Shown piece by piece: positions 23,847 to 40,505 of a stretch of 64,000 nucleotides of DNA. The DNA comes from an uncultured Planctomycetota bacterium (GTDB lineage: Bacteria; Planctomycetota; Planctomycetia; Isosphaerales; Isosphaeraceae), in contig CAWJTV010000023.1 of NCBI GenBank assembly GCA_963845755.1, forward strand, positions 1 to 64,000, in the 5' to 3' direction. Numbering within the stretch: the stretch's first letter is position 1; every line of letters begins with the position of its first letter. Below the pieces are notes generated by a model. It did not search any database and had not been told where the DNA came from. It saw only the letters and a program-made list of their open reading frames with translations. Both the position numbers and the translations under genes were made by a program.

Positions 23847-25494
23847 TCAGCCCTTGGGCCGTCCACCACGCTTCGGCGCGGTTGCGCCCCATTCGGAGAC
23901 CGAAGTGCAGGCGGCCAGAGCCTCGCCGAGGGCCCTGACGCTGGGAAAACGTTCCCCGCGCTTCTTGGCCAGGCAGCGGAGGACCACGCGCTCCAGGTCT
24001 TCGGGTAAGCCCGGAACGATTTGCGAAGGGGGCGCGACGGGATCGCGGGCGTGGGCCATCATGACCTCGAACGCACTCTCGCCCGTGAATGGCGGCCGGC
24101 CCGTCAGCGCGTAATAGAGCATCGCGCCAACCGCGTAGATGTCGGCGCGGGCGTCGAGCGATCGGTCCCCGACGGCCTGTTCGGGCGCCATGTACATCGG
24201 AGTACCGCTGACGGTCAGCTCGCTCGACAACTCGGGGGCGCCCGGGTCTCGGGTTAGTTTGACCAGGCCGAAGTCCAGCACCTTGACCACATCAGCCTCG
24301 CCGCCACGGACCGCAATGAACAGGTTGGCAGGTTTCAGGTCCCGGTGCACCAATCCCAGATCATGAGCCTCGGCCAGACCCGCGCAGACCTGGCGGAACA
24401 GGTAGATCACGCGCCGGGAGGCAGGGGACCGTTCTGTCGAACCAGGTCGGCCAGGCTCAGGCCCTGGAGGTATTCCATCACGTAGTAGAACGTCCCGTCG
24501 CCGGCATAGCCGTAGTCGAAGATCTCGATCGTATTGGGGTGTGAGAGCCGGGCGGCCGCCTGGACCTCGCGTTCGAACCGCGCCAGAGCGACCGGGTCGG
24601 TCCCCGCCTCGGGCTTGATCAGCTTCAGGGCGCAGGGACGCTTCAGCAACTGATGCTCGGCGAGGAAGACGACCCCCATGCCCCCTTCGCCCAGCTTTCG
24701 CACCAGTTGATAGTGGCCGTACTTGCGGGCCTCATGCAGCTCCGTGCGAAGGCCGTTGAGGACATACGACCCGTAGATCGCCAGCGCCGCACCGATCAAC
24801 AGAAAGACGACGTTCGACCCGGAGTGCTCGGCCGTCCGGATCTGCTCGACCACCGATTGGACCTCGGGGTGTTCCAAGAACAGCACCAGGGAGATCACCA
24901 GGACCAAGGCCATTGTCAGGACGACCTTCGCCGTCCTCCTCGGATCGTTGGGGATGAACATCCCGTAGATGATCATCGTGAGGACCATTCCGAAGATGCC
25001 GTTCTTCACGGATGAGATCACGCCGAGTACATCACCCTGGCGCAACAGGTCGAGATTCACCGTGTACTGGGTGACGGCCAGGATGATCGTGACGCTTCCG
25101 AACAGGACGTACTCGGCGGCGTACACCTGGCCTCGCGTCAAGTCAACGCGACTCAGGAGCAGGCCCGCGACCGCCGCCGCGATGGCGAACCGCAGGCCGC
25201 CGCTCGTGGCCAGGGTGTACCAGGAGGAGGCCTCAAGGCCGGAACCGAAGATCCTCCAGATCAGCACGACGCCGTAAGCCAGGGCGAGGAACAGCGCGGC
25301 TGCGGCAATCCGGTTGCGCCGCAGCGAGTGAATCTCACCCGCAAGGCTCGCGAGGCTTCCTTCGTCCGGCGCCGGGCGCGGCTCGAAGCGTTGCCCAGGG
25401 TGGACCAGGGCTCGGCCACACCCACGGTGAGGGTGGGCTCCAGCTCGATCACTTCGGCGTCCGGCAGTACTTCTTGAATCGGAGACGTAGACAT
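23847..25494 (-). CDS. Membrane Ser/Thr protein kinase (N-terminal TM region), frameshifts near 25410 and 24410
   Basis: LGEGGMGVV, ALKLI, HPNTI, HRDLKPAN, DFGLVK, GTPMYMAPE, DIYAVG. Confidence 0.88.
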
Positions 25495-25556
25495 GAGGCG
25501 ATCTCGGGGTTTCCTTCGTCGATCGAGTCGGGTTTCGTATGGCGTCGGTGGGTGTA

Positions 25557-26590
25557 TCAGGGTTGTTTCTGCGCCTCCTCGATCGTCGCGCAGGCGCGCT
25601 CGCCGACATCCTTGATGAGTCCGCGGATTGCGTTCGAGGGTGTCTGGGTCGGACCACCCTCCGTCGCCGGCGGCTTGGCCGCGCCGCCGGCCGACGGCGA
25701 TCCTAGCCCCTTGAGCTTTTCCTGGGCCTGTGCGCCGAGCTTCTCGAGGTCGAGCCTCTTGGCCTTGTCGGCCACCCTCTCCACCTCGCTCTTGATATCC
25801 GTTTCAAGGGCCTCTGCGCCGGAACGGAGGCGCGCGCCGAGGCTCCCCTTGGCGGCCTTCCCGGTCGAGAGCCAGGGGATGAAGGTGAACGCCAGGATCA
25901 CCAGGCCGATCGTCAGCAACGGTTCGAGCACGCGCGGAACGGCTTTTTCATCTTGCTCAGATTGATCCCATCACGGAACGGAACAACGCTCAAATTGGCG
26001 ACCCCGGCGATCAGCCTCCCGACGTTGAGCAGGACGACCACGGTCGCGCCGAACAACGCCATCGGCCGATTCCTCACGGCGGCGCCGAGCAGCAAGATCA
26101 TCAGGAATGGGACGGAGAGCAGATACGCGGCCTCGTTGATCCTGCGGAAGAGCTTCTGAATGCCGCCGAGTTCCCGCCTCCAGAGCCTCAGGACGATGTT
26201 GTCCTGCACACGAACTCGCGCACGTGTCTCGACCAGGGGTTTGGCCAGGACGTAGGGCTTGGAATCCTCGGCGTCGTCGAGCGGCGACGGCTTGCTCGGG
26301 CGGAGCGGCATCCGGTCAACCGTCAGCGGCGCCAGCCCTACCTTGCTGATCCCCGCCTTGAGCCAGGACCCGATCGATGCTCCTCCGTCCCCAGGACTCG
26401 TGGCCGATGGAACGCCGGCTCCCACCGCCGCCGCGGCCAGTACGGGCATCGCGACCATCGACGCGATCTCTTCGGCCCGGGGGATCGTCATGGCCTGGCT
26501 GCACTTCTTGCAGCGCCCTTTCTTCCCGGCCATTCGCGGGTCAACCTCGAACCGCGCGCCGCAGCTCTGGCAGAAAAACACGATGCCCAT
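25557..26590 (-). CDS. Zinc-ribbon membrane protein, frameshift near 25935
   Basis: MGIVFFCQSCG...GRCKKC; TM helices continue in ORF 25557-25931. Confidence 0.7.
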
Positions 26591-27529: not shown

Positions 27530-27864
27530 ATGCAGACCGAATCCGTAGGTTCGACGGGCTCCGACCCCCTGAAGGCCGTAGCCGATGCGCTGGACACGGC
27601 GGTCAAGGCGACGAAGGATGGAGCCGAGAAGGCGCGGCGCGTCGGCCACGAACGCCATGCCCGCCGCCGGAGAGTTTCTGACACAGGCCGCCTACAAAAC
27701 CTGTTACGGGATCTCGTTCGGGGTCGTTTTTCCTACGATGTTGCTCGTGCCGCGCGATCCCCAAGGACAATGCCGCCGTTCACGGACTCATCGATGGTGC
27801 CCAAGCGGCGTGCGACCTGGTCAAAGAGATGAAAGCCAAGTCGGCGCCTGGCGAACCTCATTAG
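27530..27864 (+). CDS. Small helical/membrane protein, paralog of 30766-31089 (frameshifts near 27640 and 27750)
   Basis: STGSDPLKAVADALD, QAAYKTCYGISFGVVFPTML and HGLIDGA read in successive frames and match the intact paralog. Confidence 0.8.
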
Positions 27865-28197
27865 GCCGGGACTCGAGACTGAGCGAGCCGAACAAGTCCG
27901 CGCATTACGAAATCGCACTTATGAACGCCCGTACTCTATCCGTCTCGTTCCCTCCGGGAGCACTTGCATGATGCAAGAGTCTGAGCAATCAGACTTGCGC
28001 GATAATTTGCGGATCAGGCATGATTTGCAGATCGTGTTGTCGATTCTCTCTATAAGCTTTACGCCGACCAAAACCAGGTCTCCAGTGAACCTTCGTGCAC
28101 TCAGCAAGTCGTCAAAGGCGGTGGCGCGGGCGTAGACGGTTGGTCCGGCAACACCGAGAGTGATTGTCCCAGCCAGACATCATGTCTTTGCAATCGA

Positions 28198-29160
28198 GTG
28201 GTCGCCGCCCCTCTTTCGAGTTCGGGCAGTATTCTGGCGGATGCCGACGCCGGGCGACTCACGACCGGTTCAGCCAACCCCAGGTTGGGCGACTTGAGCG
28301 CGATTCTCCGCAACCGCATCGACGGGACAGTTGGCGCGGGTGAGGAACCACAGTTCAACTATCCCGACATCCATTCCGATCCGGCGAAAACCTATCACGA
28401 TCGCTTTGGTCTCGATGAGGATCATGACCGCTTCTTCTTCCCATGGGTCATGAACTTGATATTCGACGACCGATGGCTGCTCGCGGAAAGCGACCCCAAG
28501 ACGGCGCTTCAGAACCAGTACCGACGCCGGATGAAGATCGACCTCCGCGACCCAGACCCCGACACCGCCAACTTCCCCAATGGTGCACACCCTCCCCAAG
28601 AGTCGGCTCTACATCTCGATCTGCGATCCTCAGAGGTGCGCGCACAGCACGGCGAGCCTACGGTGGTCGCATCTACTTGACCGAAGCCCTGCGGGGTAAA
28701 CTGGAAACCGGTCATCTCGGTTCAGGGTTGACCCGCGACTCCTCGAGGCGCCGGAGCTGGTGAGGGGAACGCGTCGCGGTTCATTCGACTTCGACTTCGG
28801 AACGGTCGGCGGCATCGCCATGAAGATGGCGGCGATCACCGCGCTGGCCAAGGGAGGGGCCTGATGGATTCTCTTTCCCTTCTTCAGCATCATGGCCGAG
28901 CTCACCGTGATGATCGTATGGTTCTTCGTGCTCTTCGATCTGAGCAAGTGCCAGACCTACGTGATCGTTCTGCTGAATTCCGTCGTGCTCTTCGGGGCGA
29001 ATTTTTTGATGGCCAATTACATCAATAATCCCCGTTCTTTCGGATCGAGGCCCGGGGCCCAAATCTCCGAGACGCGAATCGGCCTGCCGAATCCTCCCGT
29101 GGTCCTATGCGACGACCGAGAAAGGGGAAGTTGGCGACAATCATCGATCACGGAATTATG
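28198..29160 (+). CDS. Hypothetical protein with C-terminal TM helices, apparently multiply frameshifted; ends uncertain
   Basis: Coding-like segments in successive frames: NYPDIH..., GRIYLTEAL..., FDFGTVGGIAMKMAAITAL..., VWFFVLFDL... Confidence 0.4.
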
Positions 29161-29309
29161 CGCCAATGAGACGATCGGCGATCAAGCGATTGGTCTCGGT
29201 CGATGCCGATATGGTCTGAACGTTTCCATGGATGGGATCAGCGAGGGGACAATCGAGGGACTGGCCACGTTGACCGGTCGTGTTCCAAGCTTCTTGGAGG
29301 AGATCTGCG

Positions 29310-30440
29310 ATGACTCGAAAGATTCGTTTGGCAATCGTGACCATGGCCTTCTTGGCGACCTGGGGCAAGGCTCATGCCCAGTACGGATACGGGGGCTATG
29401 GATGGGGCAGGTGGGGCGGCTCGACGCCCGGGAGCAGTATGGCCCGTGGTATGGGCATGCTCAACATGGGTGCCGGTTTCTATAACGAACGCACCGCCAT
29501 GGCCCGATCGATGAACACCACCACCGCCATGAGATGGAACAACTACGTCTACCGAGCGCAAATGGGGGCCGCCAGCACGCACGCGGCTCGCGTTCAAGCC
29601 AGGAAGGCCCGAACGATCAGGGACGTGGCCGGGATTCAGGACCGGCTGCGCAACCACCCCAATCAACTGGACATTACCGACGGGGACGCCCTGAATGTCC
29701 TGCTCGACATCCTGCTCAATCCGGCGAGCGCCGACCGTTCGCTCCAGACGATCAAGACTCCGCTCCGACCCGAGGCCATTCGCGACATCCCGTTCGAATA
29801 CGCTTCCGAATGCATGACAGTCTGCCTGAATCGGATGACGATGGACGGACAATGGCCCCTGGCCCTGCGGACCGACGCCTTCCGTCCGGAACGCGACGCG
29901 CTCAATAAGGCCACTGCTGCTGCGCTTGAGGAAGACAAGGTGGGGAACCTCGAACCCGACACGATCCAGGCCGTTCAGACAGCGATCGACAGCCTCCGTC
30001 ACAAAATCGAAAGTGTCGTCCCGCAGAACAGCCCCGCCTACATCGAATCCCAAGAAACGATCAAGGCGATGAACGGCCTGACCAGGATGCTCTACAGCCC
30101 CGATATGGAGAAGATCATCGCCCAACTGGAAGACTACCAGGGCACGAACCTGGGCGATCTGCTCGGCTTCATGCAAGCCTTCAACCTCCGGTTCGCCCCG
30201 GCCAACTCGTATCGACAGCGGCAGATCTATATGAAGCTCTATCCGATGCTGGCCGAGCAGGCCAATGGTAGTTCGCTCGATGCCGCCGGCGGCGACGTGA
30301 ACGCGGTCGCGTCGGATGCCGTCAAGGGCGTCGAGAAGGAGGGTGGCGCGGCCGTTGGCGCCGTCGAGCACGCAGGCGGCGACGCGATCGATGGGCTGAA
30401 ATCGGCGGCCATCGGTCTCTTCAAGGGCATGAAGTGGTGA
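29310..30440 (+). CDS. Secreted hypothetical protein (Gly/Tyr-rich N-terminus, helical body)
   Basis: GGAGG RBS; signal peptide ending AHA-Q; YGYGGYGWG. Confidence 0.8.
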   Translation: MTRKIRLAIVTMAFLATWGKAHAQYGYGGYGWGRWGGSTPGSSMARGMGMLNMGAGFYNERTAMARSMNTTTAMRWNNYVYRAQMGAASTHAARVQARKARTIRDVAGIQDRLRNHPNQLDITDGDALNVLLDILLNPASADRSLQTIKTPLRPEAIRDIPFEYASECMTVCLNRMTMDGQWPLALRTDAFRPERDALNKATAAALEEDKVGNLEPDTIQAVQTAIDSLRHKIESVVPQNSPAYIESQETIKAMNGLTRMLYSPDMEKIIAQLEDYQGTNLGDLLGFMQAFNLRFAPANSYRQRQIYMKLYPMLAEQANGSSLDAAGGDVNAVASDAVKGVEKEGGAAVGAVEHAGGDAIDGLKSAAIGLFKGMKW

Positions 30441-30765
30441 TGCTCTCTCCGATCTTCTCACCATGACATCGCGGGGTGGGGTACGGAATCCCGGCGGGCG
30501 AGCGAGACTGTGACGATGCCTGCCGAGCACGAAGCCCAGTCCCTGTTCGTCTGATCTCGGATCGCGAGTCCTCATACACAGCCCGGGATGTCCGGACTGG
30601 CAGGGCAACCTCGTTGATCGGTCGATCGACGGCCATGTGTCACCAAACCCCCAATCATTAGATTTCGAAAAAGAAGAAAAGCATTCCGTGGAAGAATAAT
30701 CCGGCGAGATAGGATATACTCTTATCTGTCTCGGCTTGTGATGGTCTCACCAAATGAGGTACAGC

Positions 30766-31089
30766 ATGAAAACCGACCCCCTCGTCTCTACAGGCTCCGA
30801 CCCGCTCAAAGCCGTCGCGGATGCCCTGGACATGGCAGTCCACGCCACGAAGGGCGGGGTCGAGAGGGCACGGGCATCGGCAAGCGAGGCGATACCTGCC
30901 GCCACCCAGTTCCTGTCTCAGGCCGCCTACAAGACCTGTTACGGGATCTCGTTCGGCGTCGTCTTTCCGACGATGCTCATCGTCGGCTTGATCCCGAAGA
31001 ACAATTCCCTCTTTCACGGCTTCATCGACGGTGCCCATGCTGCGATCGACTCGGTGAACCAGATGAAGTCCAGGTCGGCGACTCTTTAG
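30766..31089 (+). CDS. Small helical/membrane protein with GxxxG (GISFG)
   Basis: GAGGT RBS; intact ORF; duplicated at 27530. Confidence 0.82.
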   Translation: MKTDPLVSTGSDPLKAVADALDMAVHATKGGVERARASASEAIPAATQFLSQAAYKTCYGISFGVVFPTMLIVGLIPKNNSLFHGFIDGAHAAIDSVNQMKSRSATL

Positions 31090-31298
31090 ACCGAGACGCC
31101 GGACCGCTCGCTGAGCCAGTGTCGATCCCAACGAGGCGAGCTGCATGCAGTTATGAGGGTTCTCGGAGTCCAGCGTCCGGAGGCGGAATTCCCCACGACC
31201 CGAGTCTCGGGGGCCTCTATGAAAAACAGAACCAACAGAAAACGTCGCCATAACTCCTTTAGCGGCATGAGGCGACGAAGCCGAAGTCAGTAATCCGA

Positions 31299-31414
31299 TT
31301 AAGAAACTGTCCGAGAAGCGGATCCGGGGTTTGTCGGGTGGGTGAAACCCACCAGAATCGGGACACTTCCTGGTGGGTTTCAACCACCCTACAAGATTCT
31401 CGGATAGTTCCTAA
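31299..31414. mobile_element. MITE-like element enclosing a REP doublet
   Basis: Terminal IRs AGAAACTGTCCGAGAA / TTCTCGGATAGTTCCT (14/16); internal GTCGGGTGGGTGAAACCCACCA / TGGTGGGTTTCAACCACCCTAC. Confidence 0.65.
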
Positions 31415-31561
31415 AGGTATTATTTATTCTCTCCCATCAATCATCATCCGCAATTCCTACAAGCCGGTGAAATCATCGTCCTGCGATTAAGTCGACTGGG
31501 AAGGATCCTCGTCCTCAGTGAAGATCACTCATCCATCCTGGTCCTTGCGAGCCTCCATCTG

Positions 31562-34350
31562 ATGAACACCTTCGACCTGTCCATCTCCTTCCCTTCCCCG
31601 GGACTGATCCGCCTGCAAAGCCGGTCCATGTTCGGAGATGTGGACGACCCGACATGTCGGCGTTTCCTCGAGCGCGTGTTCCAGGCCGATGAGATTTCCA
31701 ACATCACGATCGTAGGCGGAGACTCGCCCCAGGCGGACCTACGATTCTGTCCCAAGACCTCGACCCTGCAGGATGTCGTCAAGCGCATCGTCGGCTTCCT
31801 CAGACTGGGCCCGGAAAACGAGGGCGTCCGATCCAGTGGCCGGATTCACGGAGAATCCGGCGGCCCCGCGTCGGGCAGCGGCCATGCGATTGAGAATGGC
31901 TATGCGAATAGCAACGGTCATGCGAATGGGAATGGTCATGCGAATGGGAATGGCCATGCGTATGAGAACGGTCACGCGAATGGCAATGGACATGCAAATG
32001 GCAACGGTCATGCCTCCTTACATCTCGGCCATGCAACTCAACGCGGCGCCTTACCCGTGCCGTCGATCGCGAGTGCGACCTCGGCGCGGGATAGCAAGGG
32101 AGTCGTCCGATACTTCCGCCACGAGTCGGTGGTCACCGGATGGGAGATCAAACTCGATCAACCCGGCCGGCTCCGCTTGAAGAATCGCGTGCTCTATCGG
32201 AAGTCCGAGCTGTGCCAGGCGATCGAGCGGGAGTTCATGAGCATCCTGGGTATCGACCAGTACAAGACCAATTCGATGACCTGTACGGTCCAGGTCGACT
32301 ATGACCCGCGGCAGCTCAGCAAACTGCAAGTGGTCGAGATCCTCGACTCGGCGCTAGCCAACGCCGAGCACCCGACACGTCTCGACAAGCTCGACCTTCA
32401 CCTGCCGATCTGCACGGCATCGATGCCGTTCGCGGCGGCAGCTCAGTTCGCCTTCCCGCCGCTTTTGCCGGTTGCGGCGGCGGTGTTCGCGTATACGTCG
32501 ATCCCGACCTTCCGGGAAGCTCACAACGTCCTGTTCAAGGAGAAGCGCCTCGGGGTGGATGTGCTGGATTCGATTGTCGTGATCGGCTGTCTGGGGACCA
32601 TGTCAATCTTTCCCGGCGTGGTGCTCTGCTGGTGTCTGAGCTTCGGCCGCGTGCTGGTCAAGCGAACGCAGGACAACTCGAAGAAGCTGTTGCTGAACGC
32701 CTTCGGGAAACAGCCCCGGTACGTCTGGCTTTATCGCGACGGCACCGAGGTGCAGGTCTCGCTCGACCGGCTCCAGAAGGGCGATATCATCGTCGTCAAC
32801 ACCGGTGAGGTCGTGCCGGTCAACGGCCACGTCGTCGAGGGGATGGCGATGATCGACCAGCACGCGTTGACCGGGGAATCGACTCCGGCCGAGAAGGGAG
32901 TTGGCGACCGGGTCTTCGCCTCGACCGTGATGGTGGCCGGCAAGGTCTTCGTCTCGGTCGAGACCTCGGGCACCGAGACGGCCTCGGCCAAGATCAGCCA
33001 GATCCTCAATGACACGGCCGGTTATAAGCTCTCCTCGCAGCACAAGGGCGAGCGGCTGGCGGACAAGGCCGTCATCCCGACCCTGACCCTCGGCGCCGTC
33101 GGGATGGCCACGATGGGGCCCTTCGGCGCGGTGGCCGTCCTCAACAGCGACTTCGGCACGGGGATCCGCATGGCCGCACCGCTGGCGATGCTCAGCTCGC
33201 TGGCGCTGTGCGCCACAAGGGCGTCCTGGTCAAGGACGGCCGGGCCCTCGAGCTGATGAACGAGGTGGACACCGTCCTCTTCGACAAGACCGGGACTCTC
33301 ACCCGCGAGCGTCCCGAGGTGGGCCGGATCATCGCCTCGGAGGGATTCTCGCCCGAGCGGATCCTCCTGTTCGCGGCGGCCGCGGAGAAGCGATTCCACC
33401 ATCCCATCGCCCTGGCGATCCTGCATAAAGCGAACGAGTTGGACCTGGAATTGCCGGCAACCGACGACACCCAGTACAAGGTCGGCTACGGCATCACCGT
33501 TCAAATCGAGGGGCACACCGTCCGGGTAGGCAGCCGTCGATTCATGGAGATGGAGGGAATCGACCTGACGCCCGAGGTCCAGGATGCACTGGACGAGGCG
33601 CACCGCGAGGGCTACACCATGGTCATGGTCGGTGTCGACGACCGGTTGGGCGGAGCGATCGAGCTCCAGGCGTCGGTCCGGCCCGAAGTCCGGGAGATCA
33701 TTCAAGGACTCCGCAAGCGCGGGATCAAGCATATCGCGATTATCTCGGGCGACCATGAAGCCCCGACCAAGAAGCTGGCCGAATCGCTGGGAATGGACCG
33801 ATACTTTGCCCAGGTCCTGCCCGCCGACAAGGCCGAATACGTGGCCAGGCTCCAGGACGAGGGCCGCAAGGTCTGCTTCGTGGGCGACGGGATCAATGAT
33901 TCGATCGCGCTGAAGAAGGCCAACGTGTCGATCTCGCTCCGAGGCGCCTCGTCGATCGCGACCGACACGGCCCACATCGTCTTCCTGGAAGAAGGGCTCG
34001 CCAAGCTCTGCGAGCTGCGCGATATCGCCCGCGACCTCGATCACAACGTCAAGCGGAGCTGGTCGATGATCCTGGCCCCGAACATCGCCTGCATCGTGGG
34101 CGTCTTCACAATGGGCTTCGGGATCATGGCGTCGGTCGCCACCAACAACGTCGCCGCCCTGGCCGCCCTGGCCAACGGCGTGCTGCCCCTCCGCAAGGTT
34201 GCCCAGCTCGAGGCCGAACGCCGTCACAGACTGGAGATGACCCAATCCTATGCGATGGAAAGAAACCCTGTACAAACGCCGGCTGCAGCGGCCGATCGAC
34301 CAGGACATGCGCGAGGCGATCAGCCGCGAGTTCTCGCGACGACGTCATGA
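31562..34350 (+). CDS. P1B-type (heavy-metal-family) P-type ATPase with a non-canonical DFGTG membrane motif; 1-bp deletion near 33213
   Basis: PGRLRL N-domain, LTGES, FDKTGTLT, HP, SGD, VGDGINDS; no CPx/SCA motif. Confidence 0.92.
31880..32013 (+). repeat. In-frame 18-bp tandem repeat encoding (NGHANG)-like units
   Basis: GHAIENGYANSNGHANGNGHANGNGHAYENGHANGNGHANGNGHA. Confidence 0.85.
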
Positions 34351-34561
34351 AATCCCGGTGCCCGCTGAGCTTCACTGGCACCGGGAGAAACCTCAGTTCA
34401 CGATCCAGTCGGAATGGCTGTCCTTCAACGTACAGTTCACGCCCGAGGACCTAGTGGTAAACGCCGAGCTCTCCCTCACCGCGAAGATGTTCGCAACCCG
34501 GAAGCATCGGGAGGACGCTGTGAAGATGATCGAGGACGTTGCCGACCACCTGGGCCTTTGA
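34250..34561 (+). CDS. Small hypothetical protein
   Basis: Globular-looking 103-aa ORF in operon context; overlaps the ATPase tail. Confidence 0.65.
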   Translation: MRWKETLYKRRLQRPIDQDMREAISREFSRRRHEIPVPAELHWHREKPQFTIQSEWLSFNVQFTPEDLVVNAELSLTAKMFATRKHREDAVKMIEDVADHLGL

Positions 34562-34596
34562 GGCTACATGTCCCCGTCACACGGATTCCGACCGTC

Positions 34597-35121
34597 ATGT
34601 CAGACAAACCGAAGACGACCGGCCCAAAGCCGCCCATCGACCTGGATTTGAGGACCCGGAATACGGCCGCGCCTCTGACCCCGGACATGAAGCGGTTCGA
34701 CATCTTCCTCATCGATACCGGCTGGAACAAGCCGATCTCCCGGACTGTGCGATCCCATCTGCGAAAGTTGATCGAATACCATCCGAACGACAGTCTCTAC
34801 GAGCTCACCCCCGAGCAGTCGGTCGAGATCCTCAGGCAGGATCCGGCCCTGATCGGCTGCGACCCGACGATCATCGTCTACGACCTTTATGGTTCCACCC
34901 GGGCGCATGCCGGCAAGTACCGTGGTTTTCGGCTGAATCTGGGACTGCTGAAGCACTGCGATCAGGCGGTGGCCCGGCTCCAGGAGTTCATCCGGTTCAT
35001 CTCGATCAATCGCACCGCCGAACGCCTCGATAAGGAGATCCGCCGGGAATTGCACCGCGAAGGCCTCGATGGCATCGTCAAAATCTTGCGTGAGACATCC
35101 GTCGAGCTGCTCATCGAGTGA
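34597..35121 (+). CDS. Hypothetical protein
   Basis: Coding-like composition; operon context. Confidence 0.75.
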   Translation: MSDKPKTTGPKPPIDLDLRTRNTAAPLTPDMKRFDIFLIDTGWNKPISRTVRSHLRKLIEYHPNDSLYELTPEQSVEILRQDPALIGCDPTIIVYDLYGSTRAHAGKYRGFRLNLGLLKHCDQAVARLQEFIRFISINRTAERLDKEIRRELHREGLDGIVKILRETSVELLIE

Positions 35122-35146
35122 CTTGGTGAACCGTGAGGAGCTGGCC

Positions 35147-35350
35147 ATGAACGAAGAGATCCCGATTCTACCCCTGGTCATCGGCACATGTCTCGGGCTG
35201 TATCTCGGCTACGAGATCAACCGGCGACGGAACAAGTTGCGGAAAGTTTTCTTCACGTTCGACAGGCAGGAGAGCAAGATCGCCCAGGCACTCGAGTTGA
35301 TGGTCGAGAGCGGGCAGCTCCGACCGTATGCCCCGGAACACGCCCGTTGA
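35147..35350 (+). CDS. Small single-TM protein with GxxxGxxxG
   Basis: GAGGAG RBS; ILPLVIGTCLGLYLGY followed by basic RRRNK. Confidence 0.78.
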   Translation: MNEEIPILPLVIGTCLGLYLGYEINRRRNKLRKVFFTFDRQESKIAQALELMVESGQLRPYAPEHAR

Positions 35351-35528
35351 ACGCGTGACGCGATTGCGGATTCGGGTCCCGGGGCGGCCTTGCTGGGACT
35401 GTGCCGGCATGGCCGGCTTCACCCCAGCCTCCTCGGGTCGTTGCAGCAAGACCGGGAGTGGCTGGGGTCGAGCCCGAGGGGCGATGCCCCCGGAGGATCC
35501 CGTCGTTGGTGTTTCGGAGCGAGAACTG

Positions 35529-37964
35529 ATGCACCGATCCCAGACGACCTCAATCGCTCCGACGACGGAAACCCAGGTCACGTGCGCCGATGGAACGCTC
35601 GTGCTGCGGGATGAACAGGTCTTCGGTCCCTGCGGGGATGGCCCGTGCGAGCGCTTTCTCGGCCGGGCCTTGAGCGTCCAGGGGGTCCGATCCGTCTCGC
35701 TGGATCGCGCCCGGGCGACGGCGGTCATCCGATACGATGCCGGCCCGCGCGAGGTGGCTCCGTTCCTGGAACGGCTATCGTACGCGATCCGGGACGGGGT
35801 GCCTTCCGACATCGTGCCGGCACTCCCCAGGACGAACCGGGAGACGGCTTACACCCTCTTTCGCCACGGCCGGCTGGCGACGACTTGCGAGGTCCTGTCC
35901 GATCATCCCGGTCGGTTACGCCTTCAGCACCCGGCGATTCGGCGGGACGCGAGCCTCGCCAAAGTGGTCGCACGCCGATTGGAGACGATGCCGGGAGTCT
36001 CCGCGACCTCCGTCGGCTGGTGGACGTCGAGTCTGCTGATCCAGTACAGCGCGTCACTCATCAGCGTTTCGGAGCTGATCCGCCGGGTCGAGGGAGTTCT
36101 AGACGACTCCGGCGGCTGGGGCGCCGCGCTCCACGAGCCGACTCGCACCCGGTTCGGCCTGGCGAATGCGAGCGCGGGCCTCGCGGCGATGGCCGACTTC
36201 GTCGTTCCGGCCCTGTCGCCGGCAAGCGCGGTCTTGCTGGTCGGCACCAACGTGCGTACGTTCCAGGCCGCCTGGCTCCAGATTCGCGGCCGACGATTCG
36301 GCTTGCCGGTGCTCTACACGGCCATCGCGACGACGGCCCTGGCCAGTGGCCAGTTCTTCTCCTGCGCCTTGATGTCCTTGTTCTACAAGTTCTGGCACCA
36401 TCGGCTTCGACTGGAGCTGTCGAGCGAACGCCGACGGCTTCTGGATGAGTGCCTGCCGCGGCCTAGCTCGACCTGCCTGATCACTCCGGACGGGGCCGAA
36501 GTGCTGGTCCCTGTGGATCGATTGCGGCCGGGGGACCGCGTCGTGGTGGGGGCTGGCGAAGCCGTGCCGGCCGACGGCCGAGTGGTCGGTGGCGAGGGGA
36601 TTGTCGATGAACGGAGCGTGCGCGGTCTGGAAGGGGCCTCGCGGAAGCGGATGGGAGACACTATCCTGGCCGGCTCGACGGTCCTGGCCGGCTCGTTGCG
36701 CGTCGAGGTAACGCGGTTCGGCGAAGGGACGCGCGCCTTTTCAATCGTCCGCGCCCTGGTCGCGGCGACGAAGCCCACGTCCGGTCCGATCTCTTCGATG
36801 CCGCGTGCCAAGGCGTTCGCGGATCGGGCCGTCGGGCCGGCCCTTGCGACCGCGGGCGTCGGCCTGCTGGTGGGTGACCTGTCGGCCGCCGGTGCGATCC
36901 TGACGCCCGACTATTCGTCCGGTCCCGGCTTGGCAGTCCCGCTGGAGACGCTCCGCGACGCCGCCGTCTGTGCCCGCCGGGGGATCGTCATCCGCCAACC
37001 CGACGTGTTCGAGCGTCTGGCGAAGGTCGATCTGATCGTGCTCGACGACGACCCGATTCTCAGCCGTATCGAGCTGGAGGTGACCGGCATCCAGACCCGC
37101 CTCCAGGAATCCGACCTGCTCCGCTACGCAGCCAGCGCGTTCCGCCACCTCGCCGACGAGCGAGTCGCCGCCCTCGACGCCGCCTGCCGGAACCGTGGCG
37201 TCTATCTCCTGAACCTGCCGCCGGTCGATTTTCGGCAGGGCGTGACCGTCCTCCACGACGGCCGGCGCATTCGCGTTCGCGAGGACGTCTCCGCGGGACA
37301 ACCCGACGGCGAGCATCCGGGATCGGCCTCCAAGCTGGGTCCGCTGCTCGTCGAAATCGATGGGACGCCCGTCGGCTTGATCCAGTTCGGACGCTCGAGC
37401 CGCCCGGAGGCCGCGACCGCGCTCCAGCGCATCCGCGACCGCGTCTCGGTACCGATCGCGCTGGTCTCGAATCGATCCGAGTCCGACGTGGCCGTGCTCG
37501 CTCAGCTCCTGGGAGTGGACCTTTACAAGAGCGGCTTCTCATCCGAGGAAACGGGCCGTTTCCTCCGCGCCTGCCGCGACCGTGGCTTGCGCACCGCGTT
37601 CGTCGGCCACGGTCGACGCTGGGCGGCTGCGGCCGTGGAAGCCGAGGTCGCCGTCTCGTTCGTCAGCGACCCCGACGAAAGGGGAAGCCCGGCTGCGGTG
37701 TCGCTCCTGCAACCGCGGATGGATCGGTTCGCCGACTTATGGGAGATCGCCCACCTCCATGAAGGGCGCGTGCTCGGCGCTCAGAAACTCGTCCTGGTCC
37801 CGAACGTCCTCTGCGTGGCCGGAGCCTTCCTGTTCGGGTTCACGGGCCTGACCGCCGTGATGATCACCAACCTTGGTACCCTCGGCCTCTTCAACCGCTC
37901 CGTCGGCACGCTCCGTGAACTGGAGGCGGCCGGCGGCGAAAGATTGGTTGCCTCGAGAAGATGA
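35529..37964 (+). CDS. Degenerate P1B-type ATPase paralog (pseudo-ATPase)
   Basis: PGRLRL, GEAVPADG, ILAGS, PDYSSG retained; TGES>RGLE, DKTGT>DDDPI, GDGIND>GHGRRW. Confidence 0.85.
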   Translation: MHRSQTTSIAPTTETQVTCADGTLVLRDEQVFGPCGDGPCERFLGRALSVQGVRSVSLDRARATAVIRYDAGPREVAPFLERLSYAIRDGVPSDIVPALPRTNRETAYTLFRHGRLATTCEVLSDHPGRLRLQHPAIRRDASLAKVVARRLETMPGVSATSVGWWTSSLLIQYSASLISVSELIRRVEGVLDDSGGWGAALHEPTRTRFGLANASAGLAAMADFVVPALSPASAVLLVGTNVRTFQAAWLQIRGRRFGLPVLYTAIATTALASGQFFSCALMSLFYKFWHHRLRLELSSERRRLLDECLPRPSSTCLITPDGAEVLVPVDRLRPGDRVVVGAGEAVPADGRVVGGEGIVDERSVRGLEGASRKRMGDTILAGSTVLAGSLRVEVTRFGEGTRAFSIVRALVAATKPTSGPISSMPRAKAFADRAVGPALATAGVGLLVGDLSAAGAILTPDYSSGPGLAVPLETLRDAAVCARRGIVIRQPDVFERLAKVDLIVLDDDPILSRIELEVTGIQTRLQESDLLRYAASAFRHLADERVAALDAACRNRGVYLLNLPPVDFRQGVTVLHDGRRIRVREDVSAGQPDGEHPGSASKLGPLLVEIDGTPVGLIQFGRSSRPEAATALQRIRDRVSVPIALVSNRSESDVAVLAQLLGVDLYKSGFSSEETGRFLRACRDRGLRTAFVGHGRRWAAAAVEAEVAVSFVSDPDERGSPAAVSLLQPRMDRFADLWEIAHLHEGRVLGAQKLVLVPNVLCVAGAFLFGFTGLTAVMITNLGTLGLFNRSVGTLRELEAAGGERLVASRR

Positions 37965-38086
37965 TTCTCGAAAACCATCCCCTGAGGATGCACCACGAGA
38001 ATGTGCGTCTGACCAAACGCTTCCGGGATGACCTGGGCCGCCGGTAGCCTATGGCTAGGTAGCATCATCCCTTTTCCGGTCATCCC

Positions 38087-39178
38087 ATGAAACCACTCAA
38101 CGCCTTGCTGGTGTTTATCCCTGTGGCGATCGTGCTTGACCGGACGGTGGACAACCCGATCCTGGTGTTCGTCACGTCGGCCCTGGCGATCGTACCCCTG
38201 GCCGGATTGATGGGAGACGCGACCGAGGCGCTGGCGGAGTATCTCGGCCCGACTCTGGGCGGCCTGCTCAACGCGACGCTCGGCAACGCGCCCGAGATCA
38301 TCATCGCGCTGTTCGCCCTGCACCGAGGGCTGATCGATATGGTCAAGGCGTCCCTCACCGGGTCCATTGTCGGGAATCTCCTGTTCGGCCTCGGGGCTTC
38401 GATGGTCGCCGGGGGATTCAAGGTCCGGGACCAGAAGTTCGACTGGAACGTGGCCCGGATGAATGGCGCGTTGCTGACCCTGGCCTCGTTCGGTCTCATC
38501 ATCCCGGCGATCTATCGCCTGAGTCCTCTGGCGGAGAATGACCCCGGCCCGGAGGTCTCGCTCGAGATCTCGGCGATCTTGTTCCTGGTCTACCTGGCGA
38601 GCCTGGTCTTCACGTTAGTGACCAGCAAAGCGGTTGTCGGCCAGGCGGGAGTTAAGGCCGAGAAGGTCGAAGCTGGTACCGGGCGGCCGGGGGTCGAGCC
38701 GGAACAAAGGACCGGCTGGGGCCGGAACCAGGCACTCGGGATCTTGATCGTCGTAACGATCGCCCTGGCGATCATGAGTGAAGTCCTCACCGGGCAGGTG
38801 GATCCCGCGGCCAAGAAAATGCACCTCACGGAGCGATTTGCGGGCGTCTTCCTGCTGGCCCTGGTCGGCAATGCCGCAGAGCTGTTCAACGCGATTCGGT
38901 TCGCCCGCAGGGACAAGATGGACCTGGCGATCGGCATCACGGTCGGTGCCAGCACCCAGGTCGCGCTCCTCGTCGCACCGATCCTGGTCTTCGCCGGTGC
39001 GTTCATGGGGCGGAACATGAACCTACTTTTCTCCACATACGAGATGTGGGCGATCATCATGGCGGTGTATGTCGCGCGGAACCTCATCTACGACGGCAGC
39101 TCGAACTGGCTCGAAGGCCTCGTCCTGGTCGCACTCTACTTCATGCTGGGGATCGGATTCTTTTACCTGCCGGCCTGA
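38087..39178 (+). CDS. cax: Calcium/proton exchanger (CaCA family)
   Basis: GGLLNATLGNAPE, GSIVGNLL, GNAAE, GASTQVAL, SNWLEG. Confidence 0.93.
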   Translation: MKPLNALLVFIPVAIVLDRTVDNPILVFVTSALAIVPLAGLMGDATEALAEYLGPTLGGLLNATLGNAPEIIIALFALHRGLIDMVKASLTGSIVGNLLFGLGASMVAGGFKVRDQKFDWNVARMNGALLTLASFGLIIPAIYRLSPLAENDPGPEVSLEISAILFLVYLASLVFTLVTSKAVVGQAGVKAEKVEAGTGRPGVEPEQRTGWGRNQALGILIVVTIALAIMSEVLTGQVDPAAKKMHLTERFAGVFLLALVGNAAELFNAIRFARRDKMDLAIGITVGASTQVALLVAPILVFAGAFMGRNMNLLFSTYEMWAIIMAVYVARNLIYDGSSNWLEGLVLVALYFMLGIGFFYLPA

Positions 39179-39311: not shown

Positions 39312-40505
39312 ATGATGCAAGATCTCCGGAAAACTGCCGCGGGCGATGGCTCAGCCTCGCGCGAAGGCCCGGCGTACCGGATCGCACTGCGACTCGGGTT
39401 TGCTCATCCGGATCCACCTCGACTGTGGTGGAGCATCGGGCTATCCGCCCTTGTGACGTCGGTGCCCCTGGTGCTCTTGTCATTGGCCTCCGGCCTGGCG
39501 TATGGCGACCGGGTTCAGGTTCCCTTGTTGCGCGACCCGGCATTCTATCTGCGGTACCTGGTGGCTCTGCCGCTGTTGATCTTCGCCGAGGTCGTCGTGG
39601 CGAGGGGTCTCGGGGTCCAGTCGGGATACTTCCTCGAGACGGGCCTGATTCCGGAGACTCAGCGCTCGCGTTATGCGGATGCGAAGGCCGAGTTGAGTCG
39701 ATTGTACGGCTCGATGATTGGGAAGGGAGTGATCCTGGTCCTTTCCTACGCGCTGGTGATCACACTGCGTACTGTCGTCGCCTACAGCGCGGGCTCCTCG
39801 AACTGGGAGAGGCTGGGGAGCGCGGAGGGGGGTGATGTCACGTTCGCCGGTTGGTGGTCCATCCTCGTCGCCCTGCCCATCCTGGTGTTCCTCTTCCTGG
39901 AATGGTTCCGGAGGACGTGCGTCTGGGCCTGGTTCCTCTTCCGGGTCTCCCGGCTGGATCTAGAATTGACGCCCACCCACCCTGATCGCGCCGGCGGGCT
40001 CGGTTTCCTCTCGTGGGGACAGGCGAGCTTCGCCCCCGTATTGGCGGCCGTGTCGGCGGTGCTCTCGGGCAGTTTCGCAGGACAAGTCCTTTACGCGGGC
40101 GAATCCGTTAACAGCTTGAAGTACCACCTGGCGGTCTTCGTGGCTCTGTCGCTCGCGTTCCTGCTCGCACCGCTGCTGGTCTTCTCCAAGAAGTTGGCGC
40201 AATGCCGCTTCCAGGGCGTGCTGGATTTCGGTTTGCTGATCTGGCGGCACGACCGCGCGTTCGATGAGAAGTGGTTGCGGGCGCCCGCGACGGAGCAAGC
40301 GGGCCTGCTGGGCTCTCCCGACGTGTCGTCGCTCGCAGACATCGCCGCCGCCTTCGAGCATGTCGAGCGGATGAGGATCCTGCCGGTGGACCACAGGGCC
40401 GTGATCGTCCTATTCGGGGCGGCCATGGTCCCGATGTTACCGTTCGTGGCCTCTTCGATCCGTCTCACCGAAATCCTCAAGGACCTTGGCATCTTCATGG
40501 TCTAG
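39312..40505 (+). CDS. Hypothetical multi-pass membrane protein
   Basis: Several TM helices; HPDRAGGLGFL, FDEKW, DVSSLAD. Confidence 0.8.
   Translation: MMQDLRKTAAGDGSASREGPAYRIALRLGFAHPDPPRLWWSIGLSALVTSVPLVLLSLASGLAYGDRVQVPLLRDPAFYLRYLVALPLLIFAEVVVARGLGVQSGYFLETGLIPETQRSRYADAKAELSRLYGSMIGKGVILVLSYALVITLRTVVAYSAGSSNWERLGSAEGGDVTFAGWWSILVALPILVFLFLEWFRRTCVWAWFLFRVSRLDLELTPTHPDRAGGLGFLSWGQASFAPVLAAVSAVLSGSFAGQVLYAGESVNSLKYHLAVFVALSLAFLLAPLLVFSKKLAQCRFQGVLDFGLLIWRHDRAFDEKWLRAPATEQAGLLGSPDVSSLADIAAAFEHVERMRILPVDHRAVIVLFGAAMVPMLPFVASSIRLTEILKDLGIFMV

Follow-up and report, generated by a model that had tools for sequence, protein, structure and literature searches.

A gene cluster at positions 27530 to 39178 of the stretch analysed here belongs to a conserved system that is related to the P1B-6 ATPases and apparently undescribed so far. 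The stretch, which we call the window, is the 64-kb start of contig C23 in the genome of an uncultured Isosphaeraceae bacterium (14.3 Mb in 49 contigs). The cluster encodes a P1B-type ATPase whose catalytic motifs are intact (ATP1), a full-length second ATPase that has lost them (ATP2), several small proteins, and a Ca2+/H+ exchanger of the CAX family. P1B pumps are regarded as transporters of transition metals that work through Cys/His sites. The putative transport site of ATP1 has neither residue, and an oxygen-only P1B subgroup with a standing dead partner would extend both the P1B classification and the architecture of P-type pumps.

An initial annotation of the window had described the cluster as an uncharacterised relative of the ferrosome (fez) gene clusters, perhaps with a different cargo. 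All the open reading frames (ORFs) that it named are on the + strand and in the order that it gave. The sources cited below by identifier were accessible in part, and what we take from them refers to those parts. Within that scope, literature searches gave no description of the operon, with the limit that a tree in the Grant preprint includes unnamed R-rich FezB relatives, so that the clade may already be listed there; the accessible text of PMC11672702 includes no P1B-6 or FezB term.

Conservation and layout of the operon

We surveyed loci of ATP1 relatives using one genome per species; out of 95 confirmed loci, the best 80 are analysed here. They come from Isosphaeraceae, Planctomycetaceae, Pirellulales, Methylococcaceae, Verrucomicrobia and Acidobacteria. 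The order small protein, ATP1, predicted thioredoxin-fold protein (small2), transmembrane (TM) protein, ATP2 recurs in Isosphaeraceae, Methylococcaceae, Verrucomicrobia and Acidobacteria. Amongst loci with enough flanking sequence, the gene of a small protein that we name GISFG is found in 56 of 61 on the upstream side, mostly directly upstream of ATP1. On the downstream side, ATP2 is found in 50/55, small2 and the TM gene in 42/55 each, a DUF454-like family (F4) in 43/55, and another small gene, small1, in 24/55. A DUF5132-like protein (F11) occurs in 19/61 loci, and none was found in this genome. In the 37 loci of at least 20 kb, we find cax in 13, a porin-like gene in 9, and EcsC and DUF1345 genes in 6 each. 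The synteny search proposed in the initial annotation comes out in its favour, as the small ORFs are found together with the pumps in several phyla, and the gene arrangement is far beyond chance.

ATP1 is matched in 72 of 121 genomes of the Isosphaeraceae, the source of the nearest relatives of the window ATP1, and at 60% identity or more in 39 of 64 Methylococcaceae genomes. We rejected the idea of a planctomycete-wide system, since an even sample of 221 Planctomycetota genomes (five candidates scored per genome) has ATP1 in one genome, namely this one. Genome G114 of that sample holds relatives 37-42% identical to ATP1. Because of the locus counts and of these genome matches (72/121, 39/64, 1/221), we take the conserved unit to be real, old and patchy. 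The operon is also present in M. capsulatus, where the small2 orthologue is MCA1913 and where the annotation of strain Bath shows ATP2 fused to EcsC. M. mesophilus and M. geothermalis carry orthologues of the small genes under near-consecutive accessions. The ATP1 sequences of Methylococcus and of an Acidobacteriales bin nest among those of the Isosphaeraceae (Shimodaira-Hasegawa-like approximate likelihood-ratio test, SH-aLRT, 98), which suggests that the operon was transferred between phyla. In a search for M. capsulatus expression data, its locus tags were found in the genome paper alone (PMC517821), and the accessible part of the PMC10728633 supplement gave no match.

The features of the window copy and its surroundings are as follows.

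27530..27864, + strand: GISFG copy 1, disrupted by two insertions of one base each (either a pseudogene or an assembly error); relative L015 has an undamaged copy at this place.
28198..28680, + strand: fragment of a porin-like gene (family F9), of which a full-length member weakly matches Pfam Phenol_MetA_deg; in 16/80 loci, a loose linkage.
29310..30440, + strand: exported-type protein with three paralogues elsewhere in the genome; in 7/80 loci, a bystander.
30766..31089, + strand: GISFG copy 2, 107 aa, Ala-rich and helical with a central hydrophobic stretch, no Pfam family.
31562..34350, + strand: ATP1, P1B-type ATPase with an HMA_2/CoBaHMA N-terminal domain (PGRLRL); one-base frameshift near 33213.
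34250..34561, + strand: small1, 103 aa, overlapping the ATP1 3' end; weak PHA_gran_rgn match (E 0.036).
34597..35121, + strand: small2, 174 aa, predicted thioredoxin-like fold without CxxC.
35147..35350, + strand: single-TM protein, 67 aa, with a basic patch C-terminal to the helix.
35529..37964, + strand: ATP2, full-length pseudo-ATPase; start codon inferred.
37970..38047, + strand: relic, all that is left here of a deleted DUF454-like gene (its 3' end; family F4, in 43/55 relatives).
38087..39178, + strand: CAX-family Ca2+/H+ exchanger with both GNAxE repeats intact.
39312..40505, + strand: multi-pass membrane protein of no family; near the operon in 7/80 loci, association uncertain.

The intact pump and its dead partner

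All 70 full-length ATP1 relatives have DKTGT and TGES, and 66 of them have GDGxND; the window ATP1 keeps TGES, DKTGT, HP and GDGIND. An AlphaFold2 model of relative L015 (predicted local distance difference test, pLDDT, 81) has helices MA/MB and a six-helix core, as in the P1B fold, and its best Foldseek matches are CopA, ATP7B and ZntA (E 6e-41 to 2e-35). In fold, topology and catalytic motifs ATP1 resembles the classical P1B-1, P1B-2 and P1B-4 pumps (CopA 4bbj/7r0g, ZntA 4umw, and 7qbz), but those have a CPx motif and a CxxC metal-binding domain, whereas ATP1 has no CPx motif and no N-terminal CxxC, and they work without a dead paralogue. The membrane motifs of the window ATP1 are NSDFGTGIR in M4, PN in M5 and TNN in M6. 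The pattern N-[SCA]-[DN]-x-GTG is found in M4 of 70/70 full-length ATP1 sequences, and a further 120 homologues have D[FLM]GTG in 118 cases and NN in 119. An Asp occupies the M1 position where Zn/Co pumps have Met in 23/23 ATP1 sequences. The putative transport site comprises Asp (M1), Asn/Asp/Thr (M4), Asn (M5) and Asn-Asn (M6), with no Cys or His at the transport positions.

The motifs DFGTG, NNVAA, DYSSG, TNLGT and PGRLR reported in the initial annotation are all present in the window, and its equation of DFGTG and NNVAA with the DYSCA and HNxxT motifs of FezB is borne out by alignment with FezB-type references (Azospirillum, Vibrio and Arcobacter plasmids), in which DYSCALKL corresponds to DFGTGIRM and HNGTT to NNVAA. 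The Cys of FezB M4 and the His of FezB M6 are lost in all ATP1 members. Both window ATPases have PGRLRL, an R-rich motif that is not specific to FezB, and in the search of this genome Pfam HMA_2 scores above its cut-off. Between its two N-terminal domains (window 31880-32015), ATP1 also has a low-complexity linker of NGHA-like repeats, variable in length in Isosphaeraceae, that might bind metal.

In ATP2, the catalytic motifs are gone. DKTG is found in 0/44 ATP2 relatives, and the window ATP2, 27% identical to an intact ATP1 over 693 columns, has lost DKTGT, TGE, HP, TGD and GDG while keeping the M4 Asp and the M5/M6 Asn. We rejected a sequencing artefact as the source of the motif loss. The term degenerate used for this protein in the initial annotation understates the case, as ATP2 has the sequence of a conserved pseudo-enzyme retained across four phyla. 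DYSSG, the motif reported there for the window ATP2, was rejected as a family signature; it is found in 0/44 homologues, where the M4 variants include DYATG (16), DWVSG (8) and DFATG (6). By its motifs, ATP2 should be unable to run the P-type cycle; its retention in four phyla nonetheless points to a structural or regulatory subunit.

We placed the pumps with FastTree on 93 proteins and a quick IQ-TREE run on 61, using two to three FezB references, with FezH not among them. The two trees agree. The FezB-type pumps form a clade of their own (100); ATP1 and ATP2 are outside it, within a sister clade (99) in which one side includes the Deinococcus DFASG, cyanobacterial DFGTG and M. capsulatus DFAQG pumps and the other side is ATP2 and ATP1 (100). 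The branch that joins the FezB clade and the sister clade has support of 0.989 in FastTree and an SH-aLRT of 87, and the CPC, SPC and CPH pumps branch outside both. The phylogeny suggested in the initial annotation thus puts the ATPases next to FezB, not far away. The branch nearest to ATP1 consists of pumps with a variable M4. In Methylococcaceae (L104-L117 and L120) we observe catalytically intact pumps that are 37-47% identical to ATP1 and have freely varying M4 and M6, up to seven per genome. M. capsulatus has a second pump of the cyanobacterial type elsewhere in the genome (L126:422-2443, DFAQG/NN), with a degenerate TGE motif.

The fez-like reading of the initial annotation holds for kinship and fails for membership. 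Besides the sister clades in both trees, ATP1 and FezB have in common an R-rich HMA-like N-terminal domain, the M1 and M4 Asp, a basic M4 residue and the M5 Asn; fez operons also include small membrane proteins, and some include a second ATPase, FezH (10.1101/2020.01.10.902569). However, FezB has D[YF]SCA and HNxxT where ATP1 has D[FLM]GTG and NNxxA, the second ATPase here is without catalytic motifs, the small proteins are of other families, and the linked gene is cax instead of Feo or ferritin-like genes. D[YF]SCA is not found in any frame of the 80 loci, nor do these give a match to a stand-alone FezC/FezD-like HMA gene. Among the FeoA-domain matches listed (29 of 179 are unlisted), 70 matches in 56 ATP1-positive genomes are at least 38 kb away from ATP1 or on other contigs. 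The ferritin-like DUF2202 is found in 1 of 121 Isosphaeraceae genomes, that one ATP1-negative, and no iron-homeostasis gene (FeoA/B, DUF2202) is among the families common to three or more loci. The initial annotation had also argued for fez kinship from the GxxxGxxxG motif of the TM protein, which does not carry over to the family, where the helix has GxxxGxxxG in 2/41 homologues and GxxxG in 4/41.

The mycobacterial PacL-Ctp effluxosome (PMC13460109) is similar in that its pump is P1B-6-related and has an N-terminal domain free of Cys, with the gene of a small membrane protein directly upstream. It differs in that CtpC has CPC and HN, exports Zn and has no dead partner, whereas ATP1 is without CPC, and in that its scaffold is a DUF1490 protein. 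The small proteins here show no DUF1490 likeness: there is no Pfam match, and against a DUF1490 protein the GISFG and F11 profiles give E 0.075 and E 0.87. Because both P1B-6 motifs, the iron neighbourhood and DUF1490 all fail, we place the operon, on sequence criteria, outside both fez/P1B-6 and the effluxosome. By analogy, it may still work like either.

Calcium and other candidate cargoes

The window cax scores 323 bits on TIGR00378 (cut-off 211) and has the repeats GNAPE and GNAAE, in agreement with the earlier Ca/H antiporter call. It is the only cax found in this genome and belongs to a lower-scoring, operon-linked type. The linkage figures are descriptive counts over genomes related by kinship, with cax types told apart by bit score alone. 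Among genomes with ATP1, a cax gene is no more than 10 kb away from it in 23/72 of the Isosphaeraceae and, counting cax matches on ATP1-bearing contigs only, in 17/39 of the Methylococcaceae. Two or more cax genes are found in 34/72 ATP1-positive vs 1/49 ATP1-negative Isosphaeraceae genomes, a contrast that is overstated, since related genomes are not independent samples and those with ATP1 tend to be larger. The ATP1-linked cax genes all score 248-329 bits, and none is among the 58 that score 350 or more. Their position varies by lineage, being upstream, downstream or on the opposite strand. In most operon-linked CAX proteins the second repeat is GNAAE followed by L, T or I; characterised CAX proteins usually have a His after the second GNAxE repeat, which is absent in most of the operon-linked ones.

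The all-oxygen site of ATP1 would favour a hard cation, and among the hard cations the cax linkage singles out Ca2+. The calcium that the initial annotation had raised as a possibility from cax gains from the strength of this linkage, and we regard a calcium link as credible but unproven.

The sister pumps in cyanobacteria point in the same direction. These DFGTG/NN ATPases (such as Gloeothece WP_013334282.1 and Nostoc WP_100903860.1, known from annotation only) have the same M4/M6 signature and HMA_2, and adjoin cax, a dead or altered paralogue, and DUF5132, DUF454, DUF1345 and DUF1269 genes. They differ in forming a separate subclade (32-36% identity) with dead partners that arose separately, and GISFG, small2 and TM genes were not detected beside them. 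The neighbourhood of ccyA, a marker of Ca-carbonate formation, likewise includes cax, DUF5132, DUF454/CoBaHMA and DUF1269 families (10.1101/2024.07.07.602159). The operon shares with the ccyA system (PMC8890360; 10.1101/2024.07.07.602159; 10.64898/2025.12.07.689555) CoBaHMA/HMA_2 domains, cax, DUF454-like genes and, in part of the loci, DUF5132-like genes, and its small genes occur in M. mesophilus and M. geothermalis, both proven to form Ca-carbonate granules (10.64898/2025.12.07.689555). Synechococcus sp. PCC 6312, which forms granules (PMC8890360), has one of the cyanobacterial sister pumps; many others are in Nostoc and elsewhere. The operon differs from the ccyA system in that no calcyanin-like protein is seen in its loci and that it is also present in organisms not named as ccyA carriers in those sources. 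A rough pattern scan of this genome for calcyanin, a protein marked by a (GlyZip)3 domain, made without a calcyanin profile, gave two low-complexity false matches only, and no calcyanin model turned up in NCBIfam. Two Nostoc 'HMA2' proteins considered as calcyanin were rejected, one being a dead ATPase and the other a Gly-rich protein. The Fischerella NIES-4106 plasmid with ccyA is absent among the plasmid matches listed.

We tentatively read the operon as a multi-subunit Ca2+ pump that loads a membrane compartment, a reading that is possible while short of probable. ATP1, with its catalytic motifs intact, ATP2, with its motifs lost, and the small proteins would assemble into a membrane complex, in which ATP1 would move Ca2+ out of the cytosol while ATP2 and the small proteins would assemble and place it. 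The linked CAX would exchange the same ion for protons. The GISFG, TM, DUF454-like and DUF5132-like proteins may scaffold the complex, by analogy with FezA-type and PacL proteins, and small2 might be a non-redox adaptor. More speculatively, a ferrosome-like membrane compartment would form, holding some mineral. If the cargo is Ca2+, the system would be a candidate for how Ca2+ is concentrated in bacterial Ca-carbonate biomineralisation, a step that the accessible parts of the cited preprints leave unresolved.

A Ca2+-type cargo does not require an organelle. ATP1 and CAX might expel Ca2+ to the periplasm from an export platform in the cytoplasmic membrane, which we hold to be somewhat unlikely. 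The precedent is the PacL-Ctp effluxosome, where a similar gene anatomy builds a plasma-membrane platform: CtpC clusters with P1B-6 and works at the plasma membrane with a small single-TM scaffold (PMC13460109). Bacterial CAX proteins are also generally taken as exporters (10.1101/2024.07.07.602159; 10.64898/2025.12.07.689555), and the cax-linkage data fit such a platform equally well. However, the accessory set of GISFG, EcsC, DUF454-like and PHA_gran_rgn-like proteins and a dead pump is far larger than PacL alone, and, as above, F11 does not resemble DUF1490. An unlikely alternative keeps the vesicles and changes the ion: in a divergent ferrosome or Mn store, ATP1 would pump Fe2+ or Mn2+ and cax would be a secondary neighbour. 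FezB is the nearest characterised group, with the shared residues and R-rich domain noted above; large fez clusters contain a second ATPase, FezH; F11 shows a weak likeness to the small proteins of fez clusters (E 2e-4 to 8e-3 in a 27-sequence set); and MntP-like or Nramp-like genes are neighbours at single loci. Yet the M4 Cys and M6 His are gone in all members, the 80 loci have neither D[YF]SCA nor a FezC/FezD-like match, and the iron genes are elsewhere, with the nearest FeoA-domain match among those listed at least 38 kb from ATP1 and DUF2202 in a single, ATP1-negative genome.

The cargo may also be no divalent metal at all. ATP1 and ATP2 would then move a lipid, a small organic solute, a proton or a monovalent ion, or shape membranes, with CoBaHMA reading anionic lipids, which it has been proposed to bind (10.64898/2025.12.07.689555). 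The nearest branch to ATP1 has a freely varying M4, the M4 site of ATP1 itself has one acidic residue beside a conserved Arg, and EcsC, PHA_gran_rgn-like, ExoD and START-like proteins are among the neighbours. We find this quite unlikely, since the M4/M6 polar residues of ATP1, unlike those of the nearest branch, are nearly invariant and align with ion-binding positions of FezB and CPx pumps, and the cax linkage recurs in several phyla.

Several observations weigh against a Ca2+ pump that loads a compartment. Most ATP1 loci have no nearby cax (13/37 of the long loci have one), and 49 of 72 Isosphaeraceae genomes have none within 10 kb of ATP1, partly through short contigs. The second type of cax is defined by bit scores only, and the contrast in cax copy number is inflated as described. 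Oxygen-only sites also bind Mn2+, Mg2+, Fe2+ and Na+, and an MntP-like and an Nramp-like gene are each beside single loci. The sisterhood with FezB has moderate support (SH-aLRT 87, three FezB references), and because the closest ATP1 relatives include pumps without any conserved M4 ligands, the lineage may have left metal transport. Nor is the operon restricted to named ccyA carriers, since it is in M. capsulatus and the sister pump is in many Nostoc, neither named as such in the accessible sources; M. capsulatus has no mention in the accessible main text of 10.64898/2025.12.07.689555. Finally, cyanobacterial Ca-carbonate granules have an envelope of about 2.5 nm that is not a bilayer (PMC6087745), which would leave no room for a P-type pump.

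The widest form of the Ca2+ reading would make the system a calcium counterpart of the ferrosome: an unnamed all-oxygen P1B subgroup, a heteromeric pump of a live and a dead subunit, membrane-bound Ca stores in planctomycetes and methanotrophs, and the missing Ca2+-concentrating route for intracellular Ca-carbonate in Methylococcaceae and, via the sister clade, in cyanobacteria. We regard it as a long shot.

The window copy and its small proteins

The window copy is partly eroded. The initial annotation listed two GISFG genes side by side; both are present, separated by about 2.9 kb with the porin-like fragment and the unrelated exported protein in between, and copy 1 has the two insertions listed above. 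The ORF at 29310 was rejected as part of the conserved unit, being near the operon in 7/80 loci only. In ATP1, the loss of one base near 33213 splits the reading frame, a defect that the initial annotation does not mention. It is likely an assembly error, because relatives L015 and L016 are intact there, one read contig of run X1 shows an additional base at 33212 (this contig may come from a relative), and another gene of the window is split in the same way. That gene encodes a Ser/Thr kinase (window 23847-25657) and is divided over two frames, which fits the indel errors of a long-read assembly. Across the region, the reads of three runs give coverage only in short stretches. Some decay appears to be real, judging from the DUF454-like relic and the porin-like gene fragment. 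Relatives carry two DUF454-like genes after ATP2, where the window has the relic, and three full-length DUF454-like genes are on contig C29 of the same genome. There, a satellite locus (C29:218883-222888) combines a GISFG gene with the three DUF454-like genes around a GTPase-like ORF, and it may supply the genes deleted from the operon. Promoter and terminator scans stayed at chance level. The hosts of ATP1 include cultured, genetically workable strains, whose intact copies are better study objects, and the M. capsulatus cluster would make the cargo question testable.

Amongst the small proteins, the GISFG family has no Pfam family, and its best matches in the ESM Atlas, like those of small2, are unnamed clusters only. 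The GISFG motif itself is not conserved at its first G. Invariant in the family are YxxxY, a G, a P and, further along, GxxxGxxxA, which falls outside the hydrophobic stretch. Small1 is fused in frame to the C-terminus of ATP1 in 7/28 homologues. In small2, the consensus DSGWN follows the first strand (DTGWN in the window), and there is no conserved Cys and no CxxC redox motif. Nearly all the top structural matches of the small2 model (pLDDT 81) are thioredoxin-fold chains, the best with Z 7.6 (root-mean-square deviation 2.6, 88 aligned), below the caution mark of 8 set by the tool, and the best Foldseek E is 4.7e-3; we assign a thioredoxin-like fold tentatively. In a 27-sequence set, the F4 profile matches Nostoc DUF454 proteins (E 3e-7 and 2e-6) and the F11 profile gives weak matches to DUF5132 and to small proteins of fez clusters (E 2e-4 to 2e-2). 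GxxxG is found in 13/13 F11 members.

Related genes also occur in other arrangements. The Nostoc flagelliforme plasmid pNFSY07 has a 31-kb island (L103:7632-38595) with a dead HMA_2 ATPase, two DKTG-bearing relatives, three cax genes or fragments, an ArsA-like ATPase, DUF454, DUF5132 and two DUF1345 genes, an MntP-like gene and a P2 ATPase. GISFG is also the C-terminal domain of some EcsC proteins, with EcsC-GISFG fusions in L023, L033 and L035. Elsewhere in this genome, at C20:763282-765516 and C9:50943-52208, a GISFG gene is beside a PHA_gran_rgn-like ORF and an EcsC protein, and both EcsC-like proteins match the GISFG profile.

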